In this document: one piece after another, positions 2,990 through 48,994 of the stretch | Numbering within the stretch: the first letter of the stretch is position 1 | How the letters are laid out: each line of letters opens with the position of its first letter | Origin: a virus | Taxonomy: Duplodnaviria > Caudoviricetes | IMG/VR virus record: IMGVR_UViG_3300032086_003047 | Span: 1-58,949 of that record | Direction: 5' to 3' (one strand) | Length of the DNA: 58,949 bases | The notes under the pieces: generated by a model | Seen by the model: the letters and a program-made list of their open reading frames with translations, nothing else | Told to the model about the DNA's origin: nothing | Databases searched by the model: none | Position numbers and translations under genes: made by a program

Positions 2990-3190
2990 ATGAAATTAGA
3001 TAGGTACAAAGAAAATCTAAAGATTGAAGACGATAAGGTAATAAGTTATGTTACACATGTCGCTACAATTGTAGATAATAAATATCTGGTAGTACATGGA
3101 TATTGGAGCAAAACAACATCAAAACATATCAATTATGTTGCAAAAGTGAAAAATTTAATCGTTACTAGTGATTTAGGAATTAAATCATGA
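2990..3190 (+). CDS. conserved small phage protein
   Basis: SYVTHVA...GYWSKTTSKHIN motif, recalled from many small phage proteins. Confidence 0.65.
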   Translation: MKLDRYKENLKIEDDKVISYVTHVATIVDNKYLVVHGYWSKTTSKHINYVAKVKNLIVTSDLGIKS

Positions 3191-3282
3191 TTGGACCGTT
3201 TATATTGTTTCTTATGCTAGTTGTATTCTTTGCTGCATTATCTATGCTAGATGATTTAAACAAAAAAGACAAGGAGGAATAA
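3187..3282 (+). CDS. 31-aa single-TM micro-protein (not in the ORF track)
   Basis: MIGPFILFLMLVVFFAALSMLDDLNKKDKEE*; ATGA overlap with the upstream stop; ends in the AAGGAGGAATAATTATG motif. Confidence 0.6.
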   Translation: MIGPFILFLMLVVFFAALSMLDDLNKKDKEE

Positions 3283-3284
3283 TT

Positions 3285-3665
3285 ATGGCACTAAATAAAA
3301 ACATAGCAAAAGCAATCAAGAGAAGACAGGAAAATGAATTGCGTGAGAATAACAAACTCATAGCAGAGTTTATGGGACTAATTATAAGAGATGAAGAAGG
3401 AGATCTACCTGTAAGCAGTCAACAACATAAACTATTCATAGAAGAAGAATGGGGTAAACTAGATATATGCAGCCCTTATAGTCCTAATGGAGTAGATTAC
3501 CACACCTCTTGGGATTACCTAATGCCTGTGGTAGAGAAGATAGGCAAAGAAGTTGCCCCTCACTTTGACGAAATTGTTGGCTTGGGTCTATTGAGTACAA
3601 GAAATCAGGTATATAGAGCAGTGGTAGAGTATATTAAAGAATATAACAAAAAGAAGGAGGACTAA
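3285..3665 (+). CDS. hypothetical protein, paralog 1 of tandem NNKLIAEFMG...SWDYLMPV family
   Basis: Motifs shared with the next two ORFs. Confidence 0.75.
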   Translation: MALNKNIAKAIKRRQENELRENNKLIAEFMGLIIRDEEGDLPVSSQQHKLFIEEEWGKLDICSPYSPNGVDYHTSWDYLMPVVEKIGKEVAPHFDEIVGLGLLSTRNQVYRAVVEYIKEYNKKKED

Positions 3666-3667
3666 TT

Positions 3668-3967
3668 ATGGACACAATAGAAAATAATAAACTTATAGCG
3701 GAGTTTATGGGATATGAATTGACTGTAACAGAAGCCATGGTACTGCCAGGTAGATCATATGGAGTTAACTTAAACCGCTTTGAAGAATCATGGGATTATC
3801 TGATGCCTGTAATAAAAGAGGTATCCGAATCTGAAGAAGCGTATGACATGGAATTAGACTTTCATGAGATTGCTTGTGAGATGCTTGATAATGATATTGA
3901 ACAAACTTACAAGTTGGTAGTACATACTATTAAACTAATTAATGAAAGCAGAGATAAGGAGGAATAA
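3668..3967 (+). CDS. hypothetical protein, paralog 2
   Basis: NNKLIAEFMG...SWDYLMPV. Confidence 0.75.
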   Translation: MDTIENNKLIAEFMGYELTVTEAMVLPGRSYGVNLNRFEESWDYLMPVIKEVSESEEAYDMELDFHEIACEMLDNDIEQTYKLVVHTIKLINESRDKEE

Positions 3968-3969
3968 TT

Positions 3970-4383
3970 ATGACAACAGATGAAAGAAACATATTAATGG
4001 CTGAATTTAAAGGCTGGAAATACAATGAAGAAACTGAAAAGTTTACAAAAGGATCATTGACTTTTCGTTTAGCATCATTTGAATATCACAAAAGCTGGAA
4101 TCAGCTAGTGCAAATCGTTAATCTTTGTAACAGAAGGGTTACTCTTATGGCAATTTGTCCTGAAGATCCACAATTTAAGTACTGGGATCAGCAAATAATG
4201 GAAAATCTTATTTTCGATTTCAATGATATGATTGAAGCTTATGGTTTAGCCTTTGTAAGTGATGATATAACACAAGCTCATAAAATAACAGCTGAGTGGA
4301 TTATTCAGTACATGGATGGCTATGAAGACGCTAGAAAGCAATATGAAGCTGATAAATATGAAGGCTATGAAAAAGATTATTAA
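3970..4383 (+). CDS. hypothetical protein, diverged paralog 3
   Basis: RNILMAEFKG...YHKSWNQLVQIV. Confidence 0.7.
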   Translation: MTTDERNILMAEFKGWKYNEETEKFTKGSLTFRLASFEYHKSWNQLVQIVNLCNRRVTLMAICPEDPQFKYWDQQIMENLIFDFNDMIEAYGLAFVSDDITQAHKITAEWIIQYMDGYEDARKQYEADKYEGYEKDY

Positions 4384-13118: not shown

Positions 13119-13137
13119 TTTTTACAGTTAATCAGCG

Positions 13138-13170
13138 AAAAGGGGAGAATTAGTGCTTCTCCCCTTTTTT
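13138..13170 (+). terminator. intrinsic terminator
   Basis: AAAAGGGGAGAA-loop-TTCTCCCCTTTTTT. Confidence 0.85.
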
Positions 13171-13182
13171 ATTTTCAATAAT

Positions 13183-14631: not shown

Positions 14632-17289
14632 ATGGCAATACAGGAAATCGAAGTTAGTTCCGCACAGGGGACTAAAGGCTTTGCTAAGAAAATCGATTCT
14701 GGTGCAAAGCGTATGGTGTTTGATATCTTGCAGGCAACGCAATATCAAAAGCCAGAGGAAAGTACGGTTCGAGAGCTGGCTTCCAATGCAGTAGATTCTC
14801 AGCGTGAGAAGAACATTGCTATAGATATCTTGCGAGATAAAGCAAGTCCATCTAAATATTTTATCGAGAGAGACGGTGAAAAGTATAAGGATAGTAATTG
14901 GGATCCTACATACTATGACCTAAATCATCTTGATATGGAAAACAACCATGTTGAAATACAATACACAGAGAATGAAGGTGTGGGATTTTGTGATACACTC
15001 ACAATTAAAGATTTTGGTGTGGGTATTGGTGATTCAAGAATAGAAGGTGTTATCTCTTTAGGTTATTCAACCAAGAGAAATAACAAAGCTGTTCTTGGTG
15101 CATGGGGTTTAGGTGCAAAGGTTGCACTATCAATGAGATCTGACTATTATAAGATAGAAACTGTACACAATGGAAGAAAATTTATCTTCAATTGTTATGC
15201 ATATAAGACAGATTTTGCGATAGGTAAATTCAATCTAAACACAGGAGAGAATAATGAATACATCACACTTTCTGATGGTACTGAAGTGTATTATGAGAAT
15301 ACTGATGAAAAGAATTATACCAAAGTAACTGTCTTTTGTAAAAGACATCATAGAAGTAATATCAAGAATGCTGTAAGATCTCAGCTATTGTATTTCAATA
15401 ATGTTACATTTGACTATAGGTATGAAAATGAAGAAGCAAGTGAAAGTGTTGACTTTCTTGCAGATGTTATTTACAATTCTGACAATATCATTATCTCCAA
15501 CAATCATCAATTTAGTAAACCACACGTAGTTATTGTAAAAGGTGATGATTCATTTGATACTACGGGTGTATGTTACGGTTATATTGATTTTACTCAGCTT
15601 GAGATGGAGAATCTCAGGGGTAATATTGGTATCAAATGTCCTATACGTTCTACAGTTCGTGATGAAATCACTGGTGAGGAAACGGTTCTTATTGATGGTG
15701 TATCGGTTACTCCGTCAAGAGAGTCAGTGATATGGGATGATCATACAAGAGAATTCTTGTTGAAGAAACTACAGGACGTGGTTAATGAGGCAAGTATTCT
15801 TGTAGCTAAAGAGCTTGTAGAAGATGACTTTATTGAGTGGTTGGAAAAATGTAGAACTGTGATCAGTAATGTTGACAGGTCAAGTGTTATAGGTAGAATG
15901 TCTATGCTTATAGATAAGTCTAAACTAAAACCAGCATTTCAACCTGAACCTTTATTAAAGTATACCAACGTTAATGAATTGTTTTGGTCTTATAATATAA
16001 GACGAGTAAATTCTCACTTTGATAGAAGTAAGAAGAAAACAGTTGTAACAAGAGATGATGTTGAGTTTTGGCATGATCTTAATACTGAAAGGTTATTCTA
16101 TAAGAAGGGTCCGACAAGTAAGTACAAGGATGAATACATCATTCAAACTATGGGTCAATTTACTATGATTGAAATGGGAGAAATACCCAAGGAGTTCAAT
16201 GTAAAAGATCTTAGTGATGATGCAAACGATAGTGATATTGCTAAAATGAAAAAGCATTACATTAAACGTAGAGATCTTGTATATGAATATCTTGTTAAAT
16301 CAAAGCTCTATAAAGATTACGATAGTCTTGAAGTTCCTGAAGACTGGCAGAAAAAGATAGATGATCGTGATGAAGAAGAAGGTAAGCTTGCAGAACATGA
16401 GGAGCTAACTCCTGCAGAATTACGTAAGCTTGAGAATAAGATACCTGTAAAGTATATTGTACGTTATTGGAAGAATACTCAATGGAGTAAAGATGATTAT
16501 GATTCTAGATTTCATCATTGGAAAATGACAGACATCAAAATTCCAGAGCTACAACAGAGTGAAGACATAATTTATTATGGTCATAATGCAGATGATAAGA
16601 AGTTATGCTTTGCTGCTCATTTTGTAGTTAGAGGTAAGAGTCATTATGAATTTGAAAAATGGGATACATTTAAACCTAATACAGATTCTGAAAACCCATA
16701 CAAGTTTCTTAAAATAAGTAATATCAATAAGAAGTATTTGAATGAGTTTCTACATATTGATAGATTCTTTAAGATAATGATAAACGATACAATTACGATG
16801 GATAATAAATTAGTAAACTGGCATACTGCTAGATTGATATCCGATCAGTTGAAAAATCTTAGGATGTTTAGAAATTTTGAAGCATTCAATTCTGATCTTT
16901 CAGAAAAGTATGAGAAGCTAGTAAAGTTCTATGACCAACATCAGCATGCATTTGGATGGTATTCATATTCTACTACAGAAATGAAAGATGAACTAATGGA
17001 ATACTTTGACAAGGTTCTCAACTTTCAATTATTCGTAAAGGATAATCCAAATGATCCTGAAGCTATAGCAGAGAGATCAATGCAGTTATTCTCTATAGAT
17101 GATGCAAAGAATGCAATAGCTGTAGATATCGAAATGTATGATATTCTACAGGAGCTGTTGGAATATGCTGAAGAGGTAGGTCCATTATTGAATAATGTTG
17201 AATTTTTATTTCAAACTAAAGATATTTCTAATGAACAAGAAGTTCTTGTAAAAGACATTTTATTGTCTAAACGTTTGGAAATCAGTTAA
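14632..17289 (+). CDS. rIIA: rIIA-like protein with N-terminal GHKL ATPase fold
   Basis: RELASNAVDS, DFGVGI, GYSTK, GAWGLGAK, VTPSRE; paired with rIIB. Confidence 0.8.
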   Translation: MAIQEIEVSSAQGTKGFAKKIDSGAKRMVFDILQATQYQKPEESTVRELASNAVDSQREKNIAIDILRDKASPSKYFIERDGEKYKDSNWDPTYYDLNHLDMENNHVEIQYTENEGVGFCDTLTIKDFGVGIGDSRIEGVISLGYSTKRNNKAVLGAWGLGAKVALSMRSDYYKIETVHNGRKFIFNCYAYKTDFAIGKFNLNTGENNEYITLSDGTEVYYENTDEKNYTKVTVFCKRHHRSNIKNAVRSQLLYFNNVTFDYRYENEEASESVDFLADVIYNSDNIIISNNHQFSKPHVVIVKGDDSFDTTGVCYGYIDFTQLEMENLRGNIGIKCPIRSTVRDEITGEETVLIDGVSVTPSRESVIWDDHTREFLLKKLQDVVNEASILVAKELVEDDFIEWLEKCRTVISNVDRSSVIGRMSMLIDKSKLKPAFQPEPLLKYTNVNELFWSYNIRRVNSHFDRSKKKTVVTRDDVEFWHDLNTERLFYKKGPTSKYKDEYIIQTMGQFTMIEMGEIPKEFNVKDLSDDANDSDIAKMKKHYIKRRDLVYEYLVKSKLYKDYDSLEVPEDWQKKIDDRDEEEGKLAEHEELTPAELRKLENKIPVKYIVRYWKNTQWSKDDYDSRFHHWKMTDIKIPELQQSEDIIYYGHNADDKKLCFAAHFVVRGKSHYEFEKWDTFKPNTDSENPYKFLKISNINKKYLNEFLHIDRFFKIMINDTITMDNKLVNWHTARLISDQLKNLRMFRNFEAFNSDLSEKYEKLVKFYDQHQHAFGWYSYSTTEMKDELMEYFDKVLNFQLFVKDNPNDPEAIAERSMQLFSIDDAKNAIAVDIEMYDILQELLEYAEEVGPLLNNVEFLFQTKDISNEQEVLVKDILLSKRLEIS

Positions 17290-17324
17290 ATAAACCGTAA
17301 ATTAATAATAAATAAATATAAATC

Positions 17325-17624
17325 ATGAGTTCAAAAATTAAAACGATTGAAGTTACAAAAAGAGCATTGGCAACTTACAAAGGTCTAGGTCAGACTAATG
17401 CTCAAATCGCCAAGAGATTCGGAATTACATCATCTGAAGTTATGGATGGTTTAATTACTTTTGGAATGGTGAAAGGTAAGAGTTTAAAGAAAAACTACGA
17501 GGTGAAATACGTGGACGATCTTAATTTTGATACGGAAGAAGAAACTACTGAGGAAACATCAGAGTTTGAAACTGCCGATCAGGAAGAGGTTGAAGACGCA
17601 GAGTATGCATACGAAGAAAACTAA
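17325..17624 (+). CDS. small protein with HTH-like N-terminus and acidic tail
   Basis: GQTNAQIAKRFGITSSEV; E/D-rich C-terminus. Confidence 0.65.
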   Translation: MSSKIKTIEVTKRALATYKGLGQTNAQIAKRFGITSSEVMDGLITFGMVKGKSLKKNYEVKYVDDLNFDTEEETTEETSEFETADQEEVEDAEYAYEEN

Positions 17625-17630
17625 AACTAA

Positions 17631-18827
17631 ATGTCATATATTTCAATTAATCGAATTGGTGATTCCATAACAGGTAGTTATGGGAACACCAACTTCGGTG
17701 TTTCCTTTAATGAGGAACGCTGGAGTAAAATGCAGGAGCTGGAAGAAGCTTCTCTCAACGCATCAAGTGTTGATGAGATCAACCAGATTCTTGAGGATTT
17801 TGCAGAACTTGCAAAAGAAGACTTCAAAACTATTATTGAGTCTGAATACCCTAACATCTATGTGAATAAAGCAACAGGTCAATTTCATCTTAAGGTTGGT
17901 GATAAGGTAAGCTCCGTAGCTATGCCTAAGTCATTCGTCGAAAGAATAAAGGATTCTATCGATAAAGGTATCGATCCAGAGCCTTTGATAAAGTTCTGGA
18001 CCAGATGGCTAAGAAATCCTGTTCTTAGAAGAAAGAATACAGCTAGTCAGCTTGACTTCTCTGATAGAGTAGTGAATTATGTTAATGCATTGTTCATGGA
18101 CGATGAGGTGAAAGAACAGCTTGTAGAAGAACATGGTATAACACCAGATCTTGCTGAAGAAAGAGCAAAGGTTCTACAGGTAAAGATTACCAAAGAGGGA
18201 TTGTTATGTACTTACAAAGTATCTACAGAAGTTACCGAGAAGTTTGCATTGGATGAAGATGGTAATCCAATAACTGTTTCAAGATACAATAAAGTTATTG
18301 ATCCTGATACAGGTATTGTAAGCTATGATGAACCAGAGCATGTAGAAAAGCGAGTATTCAAGCCTGCTATTATGGGTAACAGCGGAGATGCATTCTATTG
18401 CGAAGGTGATAATGGTTATGAAGATCCAGGTCATTTTATCAAAGTAGGTTGTACACATAGATTACCAGATTGGTCTTATGTGAATACAAATAATGATGCT
18501 TCTTGTGTTAAAGGTTTGCATGTTGGTGGATTATCTTACATAAGGGGGTATCAGACTGGTGATAGAGTTACTCACAATGTATTCATAGATCCTATGCATA
18601 TTGGTGCTATTCCTAACTGTCATACTGATGGAGATGGAGCATTAAGATGTTTGCAATACTTTGTTCATTCTTCATTTGCTGGAGTTAATGGTTCTATTTA
18701 CCATTCTTCAGAATACGCTGCTTTAACTGATGCTCAGTGGATTAAGATGCGTGAAGAGATCATCAAAGAATTTGGTGAACTTGAAGAAGTGAGAGAAGAC
18801 GAGCTTAATGAGCTCAATGCATTGTAA
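17631..18827 (+). CDS. rIIB: rIIB-like protein
   Basis: FWTRWLRNP, ITKEG...YK, VNTNNDASCVKGLHVG...Y motifs of rIIB. Confidence 0.78.
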   Translation: MSYISINRIGDSITGSYGNTNFGVSFNEERWSKMQELEEASLNASSVDEINQILEDFAELAKEDFKTIIESEYPNIYVNKATGQFHLKVGDKVSSVAMPKSFVERIKDSIDKGIDPEPLIKFWTRWLRNPVLRRKNTASQLDFSDRVVNYVNALFMDDEVKEQLVEEHGITPDLAEERAKVLQVKITKEGLLCTYKVSTEVTEKFALDEDGNPITVSRYNKVIDPDTGIVSYDEPEHVEKRVFKPAIMGNSGDAFYCEGDNGYEDPGHFIKVGCTHRLPDWSYVNTNNDASCVKGLHVGGLSYIRGYQTGDRVTHNVFIDPMHIGAIPNCHTDGDGALRCLQYFVHSSFAGVNGSIYHSSEYAALTDAQWIKMREEIIKEFGELEEVREDELNELNAL

Positions 18828-18850
18828 TTTAATTATTAATTCTTAACTAT

Positions 18851-18875
18851 AGGGGAGTGTAATGCTCCCCTTTTT
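18851..18875 (+). terminator. intrinsic terminator
   Basis: AGGGGAGT-GTAAT-GCTCCCCT followed by TTTT. Confidence 0.85.
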
Positions 18876-18880
18876 ATATT

Positions 18881-20038
18881 ATGGCAAATAAAATGAAATT
18901 TCTAACATTTGAACAATTTCGAGAAACTGATGCAATTTCTGTTTCAAGACTGAATGACCTTTCTTATTCTCCGTTATTGTACAAACAAAACCTTGAGGCT
19001 GTAGAAAAAGAACCTACTGCAGCTATGAGATTCGGTAGTGCTGTAGATTGTATGATCACACAGGATTCCAGTGAGTTTCAAGAAAGGTATTATGTGAGTA
19101 GCATAAGCGAACCACCTTCAGAAACAATTCAAAAGATCGTTACTGGAGTATACAATGAAATTGATACAGCAGATTCTCTTCATGCTTTTTCAGAGCTCTC
19201 TGATTTTTCTAATGAGATATTAGAACATGCGGCTTATCAGCAGTATGGTCAATCCTGGAAACCTGAAACGCTTGTAAAGAAAGTTGTTGATGCAGGTAGC
19301 AGCTATTTCAATGAGCTATTTGATTCAAACGGTAAAGAGATTCTTAAACAAGAAGAGTTTGAATCTATAGTAGCTGTAGTTGAAAGTTTGAATAACAATG
19401 AGTTTACCAAAATCTTTATTAGTGGAGATGAGTATGAGAGATGGTGGCAATTGCCTATTGTATTTGACTACAAGGTAGATGATGAAACAATAACGTGTAA
19501 GGCGTTACTTGATCTTCTTATTATTGATCATAAGAATAAAGAGATTCGAGTATTTGATATCAAGACTACTGGACAAAGTGTTTATTCATTTAGCTCAAGC
19601 TATATGAAGTTTGGATACTTCCGTCAAGGTTCTTTCTATTTTCGTGCAGCAACTAATTTCCTAAGAAATGTATTTCCTGATTATACAGTGATGAATCCAG
19701 AATTCATTGTTGCAGAACAGGCTAATATAAATCCTCCTATGATCTACAAGATGTCCACACAGGATATTATGACAGGCGAGCATGGTGGAGTTACTACATT
19801 TGGTAAGGAAGTTAAGGGCTATCGTCAATTGATAAAGGATCTTATATGGCACAGAGAGACAGATAAGTGGGATTATCATCGTGAGGTATATCAAAATAAC
19901 GGTGTTACTGTTATTGATAATTTCAGAAATGATGGTACGAATGTAAATCTTCCAGTTCCAGCACAGGAAATGGTAGATGATCTGTTCGAGACTCTAGCTA
20001 ATATTACTAAACCCGATTCTAATAATTCTGCAAACTAA
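18881..20038 (+). CDS. PD-(D/E)XK exonuclease, RecE/ExoVIII-like
   Basis: ISVSRL, FGSAVDC, CKALLDLL, FDIKTT, YFRQGSFY. Confidence 0.82.
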   Translation: MANKMKFLTFEQFRETDAISVSRLNDLSYSPLLYKQNLEAVEKEPTAAMRFGSAVDCMITQDSSEFQERYYVSSISEPPSETIQKIVTGVYNEIDTADSLHAFSELSDFSNEILEHAAYQQYGQSWKPETLVKKVVDAGSSYFNELFDSNGKEILKQEEFESIVAVVESLNNNEFTKIFISGDEYERWWQLPIVFDYKVDDETITCKALLDLLIIDHKNKEIRVFDIKTTGQSVYSFSSSYMKFGYFRQGSFYFRAATNFLRNVFPDYTVMNPEFIVAEQANINPPMIYKMSTQDIMTGEHGGVTTFGKEVKGYRQLIKDLIWHRETDKWDYHREVYQNNGVTVIDNFRNDGTNVNLPVPAQEMVDDLFETLANITKPDSNNSAN

Positions 20039-20042
20039 TGTA

Positions 20043-20879
20043 ATGAAGAGAACTACACTAAAGACAGGGACAAATCAGTTTGTAATACTGACTCCACTTA
20101 ATGCAAGATCTGTTTCAGTTAGTTCTATGAGAATAAAACCTACAGCTCTTCTCAATGATAATGATGAGACTGTAAAGTTGATATATGACAAGTCATTTAT
20201 CTTAGAGAGGGGTAGTCAGGTTAGTCTTGGGAAAGAACCATTCAAAATTAGTTACATTGAAAATGCAGATCCTGATTTTTTATTACATGCATCGAAACTA
20301 ACTAAGGCTAGTTATTTTCTAATGCCGACTATAGGGGAAACCAGGAGTTATTTTATGTGGTCTAAGCACTTTGTTAATTGTTTTATTAGTACGGAGAGTG
20401 ATATATACCTGGATCACGGTTGTGATCTACCGTGTGTTTATTTATTGTATAGATTTTCTAAGAGCATGCAGTATAGTAATTTTGAGAAGAAGATACAGAA
20501 TAATGAATTATTCATTAAGATGTATGATGTAGATCCTTTTCATGTATTATATGTGCTCAAGATACCAGAACATCTATTTGATGAATATGAACATTTTATG
20601 AAAGGTAAGTATTCCAAATTCCATATTAAATACAAAGAGCAAATATTGACATTTCATAATGCTCCAAGAACATCTGATCTATATGGTATTCTGTGGAAGA
20701 CAAGACAGTTTCGGGAGAAGCTGGAAACGAAGCTTACAGGTATTGTAGAGAGGGAATCAGATATAATTAAGATCGATCCTGCTGCAGAGTTACATGATCC
20801 TCCATTATTTGAAGAAGAAATGTATCTGGAGAAGTATAAGATCAAAAAAATAATTAAACCAAATGTCGAATATGAATAA
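20043..20879 (+). CDS. hypothetical protein
   Basis: 278-aa ORF in the operon; FMKGKYSKF segment. Confidence 0.7.
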   Translation: MKRTTLKTGTNQFVILTPLNARSVSVSSMRIKPTALLNDNDETVKLIYDKSFILERGSQVSLGKEPFKISYIENADPDFLLHASKLTKASYFLMPTIGETRSYFMWSKHFVNCFISTESDIYLDHGCDLPCVYLLYRFSKSMQYSNFEKKIQNNELFIKMYDVDPFHVLYVLKIPEHLFDEYEHFMKGKYSKFHIKYKEQILTFHNAPRTSDLYGILWKTRQFREKLETKLTGIVERESDIIKIDPAAELHDPPLFEEEMYLEKYKIKKIIKPNVEYE

Positions 20880-21567
20880 AGAAGCATTTGAAAAAATAAT
20901 GGATAAGAAATGGCTAGAGTTACTCTGGCCTTTTCTATCCTCAGAGGAAATGGTAAATAATTTCAAAGCAATTAAGGGTAAGAAAACATTTAGTATTGTT
21001 TATCCTTCATTTGAAGATTGTTTTAGGGCGTTTAAGCTCACTCCATTTGATGAAGTAAGAGTTGTTATAGTAGGACAGGACCCGTATCACGATGGATCTG
21101 CAGATGGGTTAGCCTTTAGCGGTTCCCGTAATACAAAATGTCCTAAATCTCTTGCTAATATACTACTGGAGGTAGAAGATGATTGCTATAATGGCCTTAA
21201 TCTTGACAGAGCAAGTAACTATGACCTTTCAGGTTGGGCTAAACAGGGTGTGTTGTTGTTAAATACAGCATTCACTGTTGAAAAGAGAAAACCTGGTAGT
21301 CATAAGAAATACTGGCAAAGTTTTACTAAGGAAGTATTTCGTTTATTGCGTGAAGAGAAGCAAGGATTGATCTATTTATTATGGGGCAATCATGCTAAAG
21401 ACTACAAGCAATACATTTCCGAAAAGATGAACTATATTCTAGAGGCTGGACATCCCAGTCCCTTGAATACTACAACGCCATTTAGGGGTTGTAAACACTT
21501 TAGCAAAACCAATGATATAATTACCCAGAATAACGGGGCTGAAAGTTGTATTAATTGGGGTATATAA
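20863..21567 (+). CDS. ung: uracil-DNA glycosylase family 1
   Basis: VVIVGQDPYH, GLAFS, WAKQGVLLLN, LLWG, HPSPL, F.GCKHFS. Confidence 0.96.
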   Translation: MSNMNKEAFEKIMDKKWLELLWPFLSSEEMVNNFKAIKGKKTFSIVYPSFEDCFRAFKLTPFDEVRVVIVGQDPYHDGSADGLAFSGSRNTKCPKSLANILLEVEDDCYNGLNLDRASNYDLSGWAKQGVLLLNTAFTVEKRKPGSHKKYWQSFTKEVFRLLREEKQGLIYLLWGNHAKDYKQYISEKMNYILEAGHPSPLNTTTPFRGCKHFSKTNDIITQNNGAESCINWGI

Positions 21568-21697
21568 TTTAAAAAGAACAAGTTTAATGTCCATGAGACA
21601 TTGATTTCTGAATATAAGCAAAAATACAAACAAGAACATACGCATGCACTTAATCATGAAATGAGCAAGAATTTATCTAACTTTTAAAAAGAACAAG
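21568..21697 (+). repeat. 15-bp direct repeat TTTAAAAAGAACAAG
   Basis: At 21568-21582 and 21683-21697. Confidence 0.75.
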
Positions 21698-21904
21698 ATG
21701 GATTTATTTCGATGGTTATTAAGTAATCATGAAGCTTTCTACAGATTACTATTGCTTCACATAGTATGTTTAGGCGGAATAGTGTTGCTATTTCTTGTAA
21801 TCCTTCCATTATACTTTGAGATAGCAGTTGCTATGTCGTTTATGATAGTATTGATGAGACAGTGGTATGTTGTTGTAAAGCTTTATGAGAATGAGAAATC
21901 ATGA
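21698..21904 (+). CDS. small two-TM membrane protein
   Basis: Long hydrophobic segments. Confidence 0.6.
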   Translation: MDLFRWLLSNHEAFYRLLLLHIVCLGGIVLLFLVILPLYFEIAVAMSFMIVLMRQWYVVVKLYENEKS

Positions 21905-21938
21905 TTTGGATGTTGTCTTGTTCTTTTTTTTATATTAG
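21905..21938 (+). promoter_or_regulatory. candidate Bacteroidota-type promoter
   Basis: TTTG-N22-TATATTAG, just upstream of ATG 21943. Confidence 0.35.
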
Positions 21939-21942
21939 TGAT

Positions 21943-22146
21943 ATGTTTGAAAAAGAAACCGTTGTAGCAGATAAGCAATGTAGTGAAGCATTGGCTTATT
22001 TTCATATCATGGCTCAGATCAGAGAACGGGAGTATTCAGTTGAGATGTTGTGCAGTAAAGGATACGATACACTATGGTCCATCAATGACGATAATTGGTG
22101 TACATTCGTTGCATTTCCCACCGATGACCTGGAGTGCTTGAACTAA
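21943..22146 (+). CDS. hypothetical protein
   Basis: Track ORF 21901-22146; in-frame ATG at 21943 follows the promoter-like motif. Confidence 0.5.
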   Translation: MFEKETVVADKQCSEALAYFHIMAQIREREYSVEMLCSKGYDTLWSINDDNWCTFVAFPTDDLECLN

Positions 22147-22187
22147 TACGTTAGGGGCCGTTTACTTTTTTTTTATTTGCTATTTAA

Positions 22188-22218
22188 GAAAAAACCCCCT
22201 ACCTGGCGGTAGAGGGCT
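22188..22218 (-). terminator. intrinsic terminator on the minus strand
   Basis: Minus strand reads GCCCTCTACC-GCCA-GGTAGGGGG followed by TTTTTT. Confidence 0.8.
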
Positions 22219-22302
22219 TGCTAGATGAGCAATTATAAATCAAATCAAAACAATTAACAATCAGAAATTATTAATTATGAAAAACAGAAATTAGAAAATC
22301 GA
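22188..22302 (-). ncRNA. candidate U-rich small RNA of about 110 nt
   Basis: Lies between a promoter-like motif (22306-22337) and a terminator (22188-22218); no minus-strand ORF; complementary to start-codon contexts. Confidence 0.4.
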
Positions 22303-22305
22303 CTA

Positions 22306-22337
22306 CTAATGTAGGACAATATTATAAACTTTCCAAA
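22306..22337 (-). promoter_or_regulatory. candidate Bacteroidota-type promoter for the small RNA
   Basis: Minus strand TTTG-N20-TACATTAG. Confidence 0.45.
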
Positions 22338-25300
22338 TATTTTGCAACATCATATGGAGTAAGTATTCTTTCCAGCTGACTTGAGTATGGTATTAGCTTT
22401 TTAACTGCTACGCCTACTTTGGTTTTACCTTTATGTTTACCACGTTCATACCTTTCATATTCCATCCAGTCTTCTCCAAAGTTAAATGCTGGACCAAATG
22501 AAGTCTTGAATGCTTTTCCTACTGCTTCTATAGTACTCATAGCAGCTGAAGGAGATCGTAGTATTTCCATTGCTGATCCTGGATTTCTGTAGAAAGATAT
22601 TTCTGAATCAAGCCTGTGCAGCTGGTATACTAACATTGATCTCATCCAATCATCTTCATCATCACCTTCAAGACTTCCTAAAAGTGTAAGTAATAATAGT
22701 ACTGCTCCACCTATTGCGAATTCAGCTACTGTCTTTTTGATCTGTGATTTTTTCCATGCGGGTAACTTATTCCAGTTTTCTTTAAGCATACCCATTGCAA
22801 GCCCATGCTGTTTTACCTGCTTAACGTATTCACTTAAAAATCTATAGGTTACTACATAGTATCCTCCAGTTTTAGCACCCAGTCTTTGGTTGTATACTTC
22901 TCTGTTATCAAAGGTATCTTTACCCCATCTTCTTTTCCATCCAGGCATTAGCCACTTACGGAATAAAACAAGAAGTCTTCCCATTGCTTTTTGCTGTAAT
23001 GCAGCTGCATCATTTTTAGAATAGTTACCGTGTAGATATTGATAGACACCTTTGATCCGTTCTGTAAACTTGATCATTTCATTTTTAGTAACTCCTTCTG
23101 TCCATGACACACCATCTTTTACACCTATAGATTCTCTTACTGTCTTATAGCTTTCTTCAAATTCTTTTTTGCTTGCCTTAGTATCTGGTTTACTTGGGTT
23201 AGCTTCTAACCAGTCCTGATAGCTCATTATCTTTCCTTTAACGATTCTATGACTACGTGCCATAGCTACAGCAACTTCAGTTTGTATCATGTGCTCTCCA
23301 GAGCTTTGCATAATAAAGGTTACCTTACCTGCCATACGTTTAATAAAAGACTTTGATGGTATTCTGTTACCGTACTGATCAAACTCTTGAAAGATATCAT
23401 ACGAGTCCATCCATATACTTAGGTCATTCTCTGGAAACTCTGATACTGCATCTTTTACAAATCCATATATGTTCTTAGCGTAATCTGCTTTAGCTTGTCG
23501 TAAATGTTTTCTTTCATAGAACTGTCCACCAGCTCCTTCGATCATGTTCATTACATTTGCTACAGATACGTTGTTGATACCTGAATACAAGTTAAATGCA
23601 AGTGATCGTATGGATGTATATTTACCAAGCAGGTCAAGAGTTTTTGCTTTGTCTAATGAGTCGAATAATAAGTTACCTTCATCTTTCTTTCGCTCACCAA
23701 ACATTTGCATGTCAAGATATGTTTTCAATTGCTTGTACGCATTACTTGTAATCCCTGCTTCAGTAACTTCTTTTCTTTCTTCACCACCTATTAGCTTACT
23801 GACGCCAGTCACCATTTTTTTAGTTCCTTTCTTTTGAGTAACTCTTCTTTCAGCTACAAGATCTTGAACTATCATTAGCTCTGTTGCGACGTCTCTCATT
23901 CCTGAATAGTTCTTAGACATAGTCATAAACATTTCTAAGCTTTCCATTAAGTTTAGAGATATGTCTTCTGGATTAAGACCTTTATCCTTTTCTCTACTTA
24001 TTGTTGAGGTGTATTTTATTGGAATGAATTTAAATTCTCTACCTTGCTCATCTGTAGTAACTTCTACATAATCTTTTTCATCTTCTCTTCTTTTTACTAA
24101 GTCTCCCAATGTTTTACCTGCAGCATTAACTGCTGATGAAACTCCTTTTACATCTTGAAATGCTCTTTCACTTCCTGATTTTAGAATTGCTGGTAGTTGG
24201 TATCGTCTTTGAAATCCTGGAGGTAAATTCTTTTGATGCTCTTGATAGTTTTCATGAAACAGATCATAAAATGCTTTTTGAGCAGCGGTTAATCTTTTGT
24301 ATTTGGGTGAATCTTTTTCTAGGTAGTTTCCAGTGAGCCTTCCTTTGTCATCACGCTCTAACATAAAGTCGTAAAACTTTTCATGGTTATTTGAAGAAGC
24401 AGATTGTGTTTTTTCGAGATCTTTAATTGCTTTCTTCATTTTGGTATTCCTAAAGGTTACCATTGCAAAGTTTATATCTGCTTTCTTCTTTTTTATAACC
24501 TTATCAACTAGAGCCAGTACTTGATCGTTTGAATCAGCTAAAGAATCTGCCAGGTATGTTATAAATCCAACATCATCATGTACATGAGTGAGCATTCGCT
24601 CAATATCTTTTTTAGAAAGATCTGCATCACTGTTATATTCATTTAAGAAATCAGCTATTAACGGACGAGATAGCCTAATGTATTTACCATTTAACATGTT
24701 TATACTTCCCATTACAGGATCTACAAACTCTTTTCTTAATGCTTCTTCACTTAAATTTAAATTTGCAAGAGCTTCTCTATCTTTTATTGCTTCAACTATA
24801 TCGGTTACCATGCTAAATACTGAAGTATAATCTTTAGCGTTAGCTAATCTTCTCAGTATTATTTTCTTTTCTTTTTTGGTTCCTTTTGAGTTTTTAATAG
24901 ATTGCTCAATATCCAACATTCCTCTATCAACTGTTTCAATTGCAGTTTTAGCGAATTCCATGAACTTGTGCAATACAAGTAGATTTCTTTCTGGATCACT
25001 TAGTGCAGCTATGTCTAATGGGTCATTTGTACGCTTAAGTCCCCCTCTGATTCTTTTAAGTTCTTTTATTTGACCAGATAATGTTTCAACAAGATCACCA
25101 CCTCTTTTCTTTTTGTCTTTTTTCTCTTCTTTTCTTTTTATGATTTCAAGCTTTTTCTCAAGAGATTGTATTGTTGTAATTGCAAGCTTTTCTAATTCTT
25201 CATCTCTTGTTATCTCTTCTTCGCTTTTATCTACTTCAAGTTCTATTTCTTCTGCCTCTTCTTCTTTTGTGACTAATGTAACTCCTCTACCTGCACTTGC

Positions 25301-25915
25301 AAAATGTGCAACACTTTCATCATTTATTGTTGCAATTACATCATCAAATAAAGAAGTATCGTCATCTGTAATGGTTCCATCTTCTGTTGTTTTTATATTC
25401 AAAAAGATTGGAACAGTCTTTCCTTTTTTAACTACTGGTAACGTACCTTCGTAATCTTCAGGTGTTTCGTATAGTCCTGCTTTGTCAAGATCTGTTGTGA
25501 ATGTATTTTCACCTATCTGATAAAAAAGCAAGGGTTCTCCTTGACTATTAACGGTCTTTGCTACTGAGTCATCTGATGGCAATACGAGCTCTACGGTAAA
25601 CTCATCTCCATCTTTAACTACTACAGCACTACCGTCTCCGTAAATATTATTGATTCTTTCTACTTCTGACTTTGCTGTTTCTTCTGTATATGAATCCTTT
25701 AATTCTTTTTTCTGAATAGCATCAAAGTTATAATACAGTCTAAAGTTTCCAAACTCAGCTTTGAACTCATCACTATTTATTTTAGTGTATGCAATATCAG
25801 CAAGGTCTTCTTTACCTAATATTAGATCTAGATCCTTATAGAGCTTACTGTCTTCTCTTACGATATTACCTTTATCGTCTAAAGTCTCTACTTGAAATTT
25901 ACATGATATTGCCAT
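22322..25915 (-). CDS. large virion ejection / RNAP-associated protein (1197 aa)
   Basis: Last of three giant genes; helical; C-terminal hydrophobic segment FAIGGAVLLLLTLLG; single Cys at residue 5. Confidence 0.7.
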   Translation of the reverse strand: MAISCKFQVETLDDKGNIVREDSKLYKDLDLILGKEDLADIAYTKINSDEFKAEFGNFRLYYNFDAIQKKELKDSYTEETAKSEVERINNIYGDGSAVVVKDGDEFTVELVLPSDDSVAKTVNSQGEPLLFYQIGENTFTTDLDKAGLYETPEDYEGTLPVVKKGKTVPIFLNIKTTEDGTITDDDTSLFDDVIATINDESVAHFASAGRGVTLVTKEEEAEEIELEVDKSEEEITRDEELEKLAITTIQSLEKKLEIIKRKEEKKDKKKRGGDLVETLSGQIKELKRIRGGLKRTNDPLDIAALSDPERNLLVLHKFMEFAKTAIETVDRGMLDIEQSIKNSKGTKKEKKIILRRLANAKDYTSVFSMVTDIVEAIKDREALANLNLSEEALRKEFVDPVMGSINMLNGKYIRLSRPLIADFLNEYNSDADLSKKDIERMLTHVHDDVGFITYLADSLADSNDQVLALVDKVIKKKKADINFAMVTFRNTKMKKAIKDLEKTQSASSNNHEKFYDFMLERDDKGRLTGNYLEKDSPKYKRLTAAQKAFYDLFHENYQEHQKNLPPGFQRRYQLPAILKSGSERAFQDVKGVSSAVNAAGKTLGDLVKRREDEKDYVEVTTDEQGREFKFIPIKYTSTISREKDKGLNPEDISLNLMESLEMFMTMSKNYSGMRDVATELMIVQDLVAERRVTQKKGTKKMVTGVSKLIGGEERKEVTEAGITSNAYKQLKTYLDMQMFGERKKDEGNLLFDSLDKAKTLDLLGKYTSIRSLAFNLYSGINNVSVANVMNMIEGAGGQFYERKHLRQAKADYAKNIYGFVKDAVSEFPENDLSIWMDSYDIFQEFDQYGNRIPSKSFIKRMAGKVTFIMQSSGEHMIQTEVAVAMARSHRIVKGKIMSYQDWLEANPSKPDTKASKKEFEESYKTVRESIGVKDGVSWTEGVTKNEMIKFTERIKGVYQYLHGNYSKNDAAALQQKAMGRLLVLFRKWLMPGWKRRWGKDTFDNREVYNQRLGAKTGGYYVVTYRFLSEYVKQVKQHGLAMGMLKENWNKLPAWKKSQIKKTVAEFAIGGAVLLLLTLLGSLEGDDEDDWMRSMLVYQLHRLDSEISFYRNPGSAMEILRSPSAAMSTIEAVGKAFKTSFGPAFNFGEDWMEYERYERGKHKGKTKVGVAVKKLIPYSSQLERILTPYDVAKYLESL

Positions 25916-48935: not shown

Positions 48936-48994
48936 GGCTATAATTTTATAAAAATAATTGATAATCTAACATCGTTCAAATAATTTATCTAACG

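Follow-up and report, generated by a model that had tools for sequence, protein, structure and literature searches.

Of the phages that infect Bacteroidota, the crAss-like group is one of the most abundant. In phage lambda, the short OOP RNA is made between converging units from its own promoter to an intrinsic terminator, overlaps the end of cII and acts on cII in cis as an antisense RNA, and in enterobacteria small RNAs such as DapZ and MicL come from 3′ untranslated regions (3′ UTRs), with a promoter located inside the gene end. For Bacteroides thetaiotaomicron, a class of 3′ UTR-derived small RNAs that share the terminator of the parental mRNA has been described (PMC7366714). Temporal control in crAss-like phages is known in outline, with the virion polymerase serving the early genes and the host polymerase the middle and late genes (10.1101/2020.03.07.982082). 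As outlined in the same preprint, the host polymerase transcribes the middle and late genes of Cellulophaga phage phi14:2, a tripartite motif mapped by primer extension lies upstream of its genes g070, g075, g108 and g110, and abundant non-coding RNAs arise from its g004–g005 and g005–g006 intergenic regions. Here we describe a candidate 3′ UTR-type RNA from the gap between two converging gene blocks of IMG/VR virus record IMGVR_UViG_3300032086_003047, a 58,949-base stretch estimated to be 66% complete, which we refer to at its full length as the window and which, judged by its sequence, is a fragment of a marine crAss-like phage. The combination of a conserved terminator and a conserved promoter-like block with the TTG-N20-TAnnTTTG layout of two phi14:2 promoters makes it plausible, at a probability of roughly 45%, that this gap gives rise to a U-rich RNA of ~113 nt that shares the terminator of the adjoining mRNA.

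Genes in the window run rightward from 1 to 22146 (33 called) and leftward from 58949 to 22322 (18 called), and leave a convergent gap of 175 nt (22147–22321) between the plus-strand block and the final minus-strand gene. This last gene (22322–25915, minus strand) encodes 1197 aa with 26–29% identity to crAss-like ‘putative RNA-polymerase subunit’ genes (tblastn), and its stop codon TAA was placed at 22322–22324 by the open reading frame (ORF) calls and the alignment. The layout matches that of phi14:2, in which the rightward g064 is followed by the leftward g065–g067. A protein search returned 20 homologues, and an alignment of 14 of them was used to fetch eight metagenome and six viral loci, the relatives being from marine samples; converging genes follow the 1197-aa homologue in the 10 distinct relatives’ loci with gene ends examined, at gaps of ~0 to 294 nt. 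The nearest contigs, L001 and L002, are 99.97% identical to one another and match the window at 98–99% over the plus-strand block and the gap, and therefore tell us nothing about constraint in the gap; within the 1197-aa gene their identity to the window is 53–96%. L004–L008, L016, L017, L023 and L024 are further copies of L001/L002, and L003 is the window itself. For the comparison with L009 the neutral baseline is low, at 98 identical four-fold sites out of 194 in the 1197-aa gene and 29 out of 64 in the 234-aa gene. DNA-pattern scans of viral contigs added only L001/L002 or 12 unrelated A-rich chance matches, and neither a DNA-pattern scan of genome contigs nor blastn against the phage collection returned a relative.

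The GC hairpin on the minus strand of the gap is a real intrinsic terminator that is kept in relatives with two compensatory pairs. A terminator scan and the consensus fold place it at 22188–22219, with a 12-pair stem, the loop GCCA and a U run; six of the 12 pairs in the stem (22219–22192) are G-C, and the T run follows directly on the minus strand. Terminator-like sites between 20000 and 24000 number four against 1.9 expected, and this hairpin is the only strong one on the minus strand. In the consensus fold computed from four sequences, columns 89/112 and 94/107 of the stem remain paired although both partners have changed, and none of the stem pairs between columns 87 and 114 is broken. 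The hairpin is kept in L009, L014 and L010; L011, L012 and L019 have non-homologous GC hairpins at the corresponding place, and in L015 no gap follows the 1197-aa homologue. It is the first terminator past the stop codon, with no ORF between, as is expected of a terminator shared between a 3′ UTR-derived small RNA and its parental mRNA. The gap would be the termination zone of the two converging blocks, and by layout the minus strand from 22321 to 22188 would be the 3′ untranslated end of the late mRNA for the 1197-aa RNA-polymerase-associated virion protein, stopping at this conserved terminator. The original prediction, made from the sequence alone, had proposed a small antisense RNA here with the caveat that the stretch could simply be the 3′ UTR of the late operon, and by layout that caveat is correct regardless.

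Upstream of this body lies a promoter-like element that extends into the gene. Published Bacteroidota promoters have TTTG near −33 and a TAnnTTTG box (PMC7366714; PMC9723704), the box occupying −12 to −5 (PMC9723704). The window has a −33-like TTTG at 22334–22337 on the minus strand, preceded by the A-rich sequence GCAAAATA and separated by 20 nt from the −7-like box TACATTAG at 22306–22313, which alignment and the published consensus identify as TAnnTTTG with T changed to A at position 7. Since the stop codon occupies 22324–22322, the TTTG is part of the final codons of the 1197-aa gene. It is invariant in six sequences (window, L001, L009, L014, L010 and L013), TAnATTAG is kept in all six, and the single change inside the box falls on an n position. 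The alignment places the element within a conserved 57-nt block (22304–22360, minus strand) that covers the final 12 codons, the stop codon and the first 21 nt downstream. Over these 12 codons the window and L009 are identical at 34 of 36 bases, the best of 1139 twelve-codon windows, and the window and L013 at 32 of 36, among the top seven of 523; third positions of identical residues are the same in 11 of 11 cases between the window and L009 (343 of 567 gene-wide), and 17 of the 21 nt past the stop codon are identical in this pair. The differences inside the block are confined to the spacer and one n position of the −7 box. The exact 32-nt promoter-like pattern occurs in 13 of 21 loci, which represent four lineages and include L003, the window itself. 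In L010, the protein end has moved upstream by an inverted duplication and an intact copy of the element is kept downstream of the displaced stop codon. The duplicated gene end in L010 (3040–3110; TATTTGGAA / TTCCAAATA) folds into a perfect hairpin, and the C-terminus of the protein becomes KYLEGLSK; on this 4.2-kb scaffold the duplication could be an assembly artefact.

The closest counterparts of this element are the middle promoters of phi14:2. Upstream of g070 and g075 we read AAAACTTG-N20-TAnnTTTG, with the boxes TATATTTG or TACTTTTG, directly from the sequence, and the corresponding element in the window is AAAATATTTG-N20-TACATTAG. Both consist of an A-rich block, TTG, 20 nt and a TAnnTTTG-type box, both phages are marine and crAss-like, and their gene layouts around the RNA polymerase module are alike. 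Unlike the phi14:2 promoters, the element in the window has one mismatch in its box and precedes no protein-coding gene.

We propose that a host promoter of the Bacteroidota type, formed by the A-rich block, TTTG, 20 nt and TACATTAG, overlaps the last codons of the gene and most likely also fires alone near 22301, which would yield a U-rich RNA of ~113 nt ending at the terminator of the mRNA, that is, a ‘3′ UTR-type’ small RNA of the middle or late phase. We infer the promoter activity, the accumulation of a discrete RNA and its role from sequence features, and the start at ~22301 is predicted by setting the −7 box at −12 to −5. The predicted fold (−29 kcal/mol, z −4.45) begins with a free 23-nt U-rich 5′ arm and continues through a 13-bp hairpin, a U-rich linker and a small hairpin to the terminator. 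The 5′ arm (22279–22301, minus strand), bounded by the inferred start and unpaired in the fold, keeps the sequence GAUUUU..AUUU(U)CUG in L009, L010 and L013. The sequence of the 13-bp A-U/G-U hairpin (22250–22278, minus strand) is not conserved, and L009 and L010 have a different short hairpin in its place. The body as a whole (22300–22225) is 57% U as RNA (plus-strand A 0.566). It contains a 23-nt stretch (22262–22284 on the plus strand, delimited by the alignment) that carries TTAATTATGAAA and is flanked by the repeat AATTTCTG on the minus strand; this stretch is present in the window and L001 and absent from L009, L010, L014 and L013, and our own reading is that it is probably an insertion in the lineage of the window. 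The body is 87 nt long in the window and 62–65 nt in the relatives; with the 23-nt stretch removed the lengths are 58 and 57 nt, and by manual reading the first ~27 nt line up.

Several known kinds of RNA resemble this candidate in part. The predicted start just past the stop codon, the putative promoter over the last codons and the terminator held in common with the upstream mRNA give it the layout of a 3′ UTR small RNA, and its predicted length of ~110 nt and single-stranded 5′ part are further features of the 3′ UTR-derived class; unlike those RNAs, it is phage-encoded, has a predicted start, and has a body that is 57% U and poorly conserved. Like lambda OOP, it would be a short phage RNA with a promoter of its own and an intrinsic terminator between converging transcription units, but it overlaps no gene on the other strand. 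A GC hairpin between converging blocks is also the hallmark of bidirectional intrinsic terminators, and in L009 and L014 the hairpin is flanked by A5 and T5; in the window, unlike in such terminators, the hairpin has a U run on its minus-strand side only and stands ~100 nt from the stop codon. The phi14:2 transcripts from g004–g006 are abundant non-coding products of a crAss-like phage with no assigned function, but they are long, early and rightward and come from the early region, outside the convergent gap. None of the titles and abstracts in the literature searched reports a small RNA from the corresponding place of a crAss-like phage, and the crAss001 preprint makes no mention of non-coding, antisense or small RNA, of intergenic regions or of terminators.

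Rfam gave no family match across the window, the best sub-threshold hit in 22100–22400 being MicC (E 0.61; 21.1 bits, where the family threshold is 90), and no tRNAs were found in the window or in the loci of six relatives. Small ORFs in the gap were rejected as coding: on manual reading the minus strand has no ATG and its TTG-led frames span 3–14 codons, and the plus-strand frames led by ATGAGC are 10, 46, 22 and 3 codons long with no common frame. A frame-shifted extension of the 1197-aa protein was rejected because a 1-nt indel relative to L009 changes the frame and GATTTT stays.

We regard as quite possible, short of probable, that the locus is a plain 3′ UTR and nothing more. The late mRNA would then continue beyond its stop codon for ~100 nt, as far as the nearest intrinsic terminator, which by layout the hairpin is; the promoter match would be due to chance; the conserved block would serve another end, as an RNA element of the mRNA end or as a codon constraint; and the body would drift. 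Many observations fit this account or weigh against a separate small RNA. Genome-wide, TTTG-N19–21-TAnnTTnG is found five times against 4.8 expected, which is chance frequency, and TACATTAG agrees with TAnnTTTG at five of six specified positions, with TTAG for TTTG. The element is absent from L011/L018, L012/L019/L020, L015, L021 and phi14:2, more distant relatives have UTRs of 55–75 nt with a terminator and no promoter-like motif, and the convergent gap of phi14:2 (g064–g065) is 59 nt long with a bidirectional terminator only. L013 lacks the GC hairpin and has only a weak A-U hairpin. The body between box and terminator changes by slippage within GATT/TTCTG units, its indels measuring 8 and 23 nt, and cannot be aligned significantly between lineages (z 1.35–1.96, with 0.04–0.10 of shuffles reaching the score). 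Other 12-codon windows reach 32–33 of 36 identical bases, so the conserved block is extreme, not unique. Three of the 24 sequencing runs are RNA-labelled, all available as contigs (depth 2–6; 14, 10 and 5 of 30 bins), and over 20500–24000 they contribute seven, four and two short, low-depth pieces, none of them on 22223–22507, which is uninformative as to a discrete transcript; one X19 piece ends at 22222.

A plain 3′ UTR does not account for the nucleotide-level conservation of the last 12 codons and the following 21 nt, the exact TTG-N20-TAnnTTnG layout shared with the phi14:2 sites, the copy retained in L010, or the resemblance of the body to early-gene start regions, which one of 1000 shuffles matches (see below). 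The putative promoter is better supported by conservation and analogy than by its genome-wide frequency. Of the arrangement originally proposed, promoter, U-rich body and terminator, the layout is real at the locus, but the promoter pattern taken alone is at chance frequency; among relatives, the block recurs in L001, L009, L014, L010 and L013, and neither phi14:2 nor the more distant relatives have the arrangement.

Nested within the preferred reading of a ~113-nt 3′ UTR-type RNA is the full proposal of the original prediction, that this RNA acts in trans to block translation of early genes as an early-to-late switch, with the TAAACCAAAACAAAGATG family, the GGAGGAATAATTATG family and gene 5748 as targets. 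We consider this proposal doubtful. Its leading idea, which is also our leading guess at a function, is that the U-rich single-stranded parts would pair with the A-rich translation start regions of early phage genes. Every motif that had been listed was found where it had been placed on the minus or plus strand, with AAATCAAAACAA at 22242–22253, TAATTATG at 22272–22279 and TTAATTATGAAA at 22271–22282 (plus strand), and the partners of these gap motifs are located at 3280, 3663, 3965 and 5742. AAACCAAAACAA, at up to one mismatch, has 11 matches against 1.05 expected, six of the 11 being the early cassette itself, and TAATTATG has eight against 6.7. The 12-mer has two matches against 0.07 expected, with one of 100 shuffles giving as many. 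The 16-mer around TTAATTATGAAA differs from gene 5748 by one mismatch, and its two matches, one of which is the gap copy, are marginal against 0.33 expected.

For a broader comparison, start regions were defined as −30 to +20 and early starts as those of the 14 genes below 6 kb. Against these 14, the mean longest shared word of the body is 8.36, compared with 7.18 ± 0.30 in dinucleotide shuffles, one of 1000 of which reaches 8.36. The signal persists when either half of the body is taken alone (8 and 6 of 500 shuffles), when the insertion is left out (3 of 500) and when a second-order Markov model serves as the null (0 of 500), and concatenated starts of later genes compared with the early starts stay below the gap body (mean 6.97, maximum 8.00). 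Over all starts of the plus-strand block, the longest exact complementary word has a mean of 7.69 against 7.16 ± 0.23, which 1.7% of 300 shuffles reach; none of 42 composition-matched natural windows, which are few and mutually overlapping, attains it. The mean duplex energy over the 32 plus-strand starts in the duplex test is −15.33 against −14.14 ± 0.59, a value reached by two of 100 dinucleotide shuffles, and the strongest duplexes form long, patchy pairings. The word signal arises from 8-mers shared with the two junction families TAAACCAAAACAAAGATG and AAGGAGGAATAATTATG, together with an 11-mer in gene 365 and a 13-mer at gene 5748; relative to the start codon the matches fall at −10 to −3, −5 to +4 and −7 to +6, and the promoter type would fit middle or late timing. 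The 18 later plus-strand genes have no word excess (0.315 of shuffles reach the observed value), and the 18 minus-block starts have no excess of duplex energy (0.57 of shuffles equal it) and a mean shared word of 6.50, given without a shuffle comparison.

These early junctions form two repeated families within the window, at 335–1979 and 3267–3985. The TAAACCAAAACAAAGATG junction occurs five times, with the stop codon of the first gene 12 nt upstream of the ATG of the second, and the AAGGAGGAATAATTATG junction occurs three times and includes a GGAGG resembling a Shine-Dalgarno sequence, an unexpected feature in a Bacteroidota phage.

Other results speak against masking of early starts. Strong duplexes, counted at cut-offs of −12 or −14 kcal/mol, are no more numerous than in shuffles, of which 0.51 and 0.31 equal the counts. 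The start-region matches are 7–13 nt long and nearly all A-U. The 13-bp hairpin contains the complement of TAATTATG and part of that of AAATCAAAACAA, seven of the eight bases of CAUAAUUA lie inside it, and the TAATTATG-complementary part falls within the lineage-specific 23-nt insertion. The bodies of L009, L010 and L013 have no significant excess against the early starts of the window (0.225, 0.22 and 0.105), and complements of the conserved 5′ arm occur in the window only at chance level (four matches, one of them itself, against 2.58 expected). The p-values for the early starts are optimistic because the pattern had been picked by eye beforehand. The start-masking signal, as computed from the sequences, is real but statistically modest and comes without comparative support, and we think it unlikely that it reflects masking. 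Start-region pairing is weakly supported as the function of the RNA, and host targets are equally possible. The most specific version would have a middle or late U-rich ‘anti-leader’ RNA, with its host-type promoter in the end of the virion RNA-polymerase-associated gene, silence early genes of the phage by pairing with the junction and start motifs that they share, which lack Shine-Dalgarno sequences, and gain new specificities through antisense insertions such as the 23-nt stretch at 22262–22284; we hold this to be improbable. The locus is a reasonable candidate for bench tests and not a demonstrated regulator.

A last alternative, that the A-rich plus-strand text is the relic of decayed early-type junctions of a small gene lost from the end of the plus-strand block and the conserved block a module boundary where strains recombine, draws on two start-like plus-strand contexts with ORFs of 10 and 5 codons (manual reading), on the drop in L001 identity at ~22300 and on contig breaks of run X4 at 22313–22373, but the ATGAGC-led ORFs share no frame between lineages and a relic does not explain why the block and the terminator-proximal motifs are conserved where four-fold sites are ~50% identical, and we consider it highly improbable.

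Two further motifs in the gap are conserved among the relatives. Just upstream of the terminator, the alignment shows TTGCTCAT at 22225–22232 (minus strand). In the general form T(T/C)GCTCAT it is kept in the window, L001, L009, L010, L014, L012 and L019, with CACTCAT in L013 and CGCTAAT in L011, and it stands 0–25 nt upstream of the terminator in both groups of relatives, including the group at 41–44% identity. In L011, L012 and L019 it occupies the loop of a conserved CGAAC/GTTCG hairpin. Its opposite strand reads ATGAGC, and the ORFs that start there share no frame. Between the terminator and the end of the plus-strand block, a run of nine T (T9; 22166–22174 on the plus strand, AAGTAAAAAAAAA-type on the minus strand, from the alignment) is kept in the window, L001, L009, L010, L014, L011, L012 and L019 and interrupted in L013, and it is retained even where the neighbouring protein is only 41–44% identical. 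Its minus-strand form is (C)AAGTAAAAAAAAA(T/G)T in the relatives, as against AAATAAAAAAAAAGT in the window. Because L012 and L019 carry it between two distinct terminator hairpins, it is not simply a terminator tail. Elsewhere in the window the motif has 13 matches against 9.42 expected at up to two mismatches, and the only exact copy is in the gap.

The gap also adjoins a boundary between strains. Identity to L001/L002 is 98–99% over 16300–22300 and 53–96% past that, a sharp mosaic boundary at ~22300–22345, and contigs of the DNA run X4 break at 22313–22373, where strain variation starts, in agreement with this cliff. Between strains, replication genes are shared and virion and RNA-polymerase genes diverge. 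The 1197-aa gene is preceded by ORFs of 3001 and 2211 aa and matches 73 records, every one at less than 60% identity. On the other side, the ORF calls end the plus-strand block with an 81-aa ORF (21901–22146, plus strand) that converges on the gap and matches no PHROG family. Canonical intrinsic terminators (GGGGAG...CTCCCC followed by a T run) are also found within the plus-strand block at 13119–13182 and 18828–18880 (plus strand); they leave only ~10–20 nt before the next ATG and may therefore be partial terminators. TTTAAAAAGAACAAG occurs at each end of the 130 nt that separate the 234-aa ORF from the 68-aa ORF (21568–21697, plus strand), its second copy directly abutting the ATG.

Outside the gap, the only intergenic gap within the minus-strand block contains AAATTATTTG-N20-TATTTTTA at 48939–48979 (minus strand), which ends 13 nt before the ATG of a 901-aa gene and is likely a host-type promoter with a very short leader; its architecture speaks for the promoter reading of the element in the convergent gap. 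Two perfect TAnnTTTG matches in nearby coding sequence had no strict-pattern match on the L009 gene strand, in a control made without aligning homologous positions. A scan for sigma-70-type promoters gave 17 sites against 16.6 expected, and TTGGAA-N17-TACATT was rejected as a sigma-70 site, scoring 8 of 12 by manual count, below the cut-off of the scan. TTGGANNGTTTAT also occurs at 3191, its five matches against 2.34 expected (up to one mismatch) not being significant, and TTGGACCGTTTAT at 3191–3203 (plus strand), directly past the stop codon of the ORF at 2990–3190, resembles TTGGAAAGTTTAT of the conserved block, again not significantly.

If the locus is only a 3′ UTR, the result is a smaller one: a terminator zone and a promoter-like block, both conserved, together with two motifs that await an explanation. 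If instead the candidate proves to be a phage small RNA that silences early genes, it would be a compact test case for RNA control of A-rich leaders without Shine-Dalgarno pairing, and it would add a new regulatory layer to the crAss-like phages.

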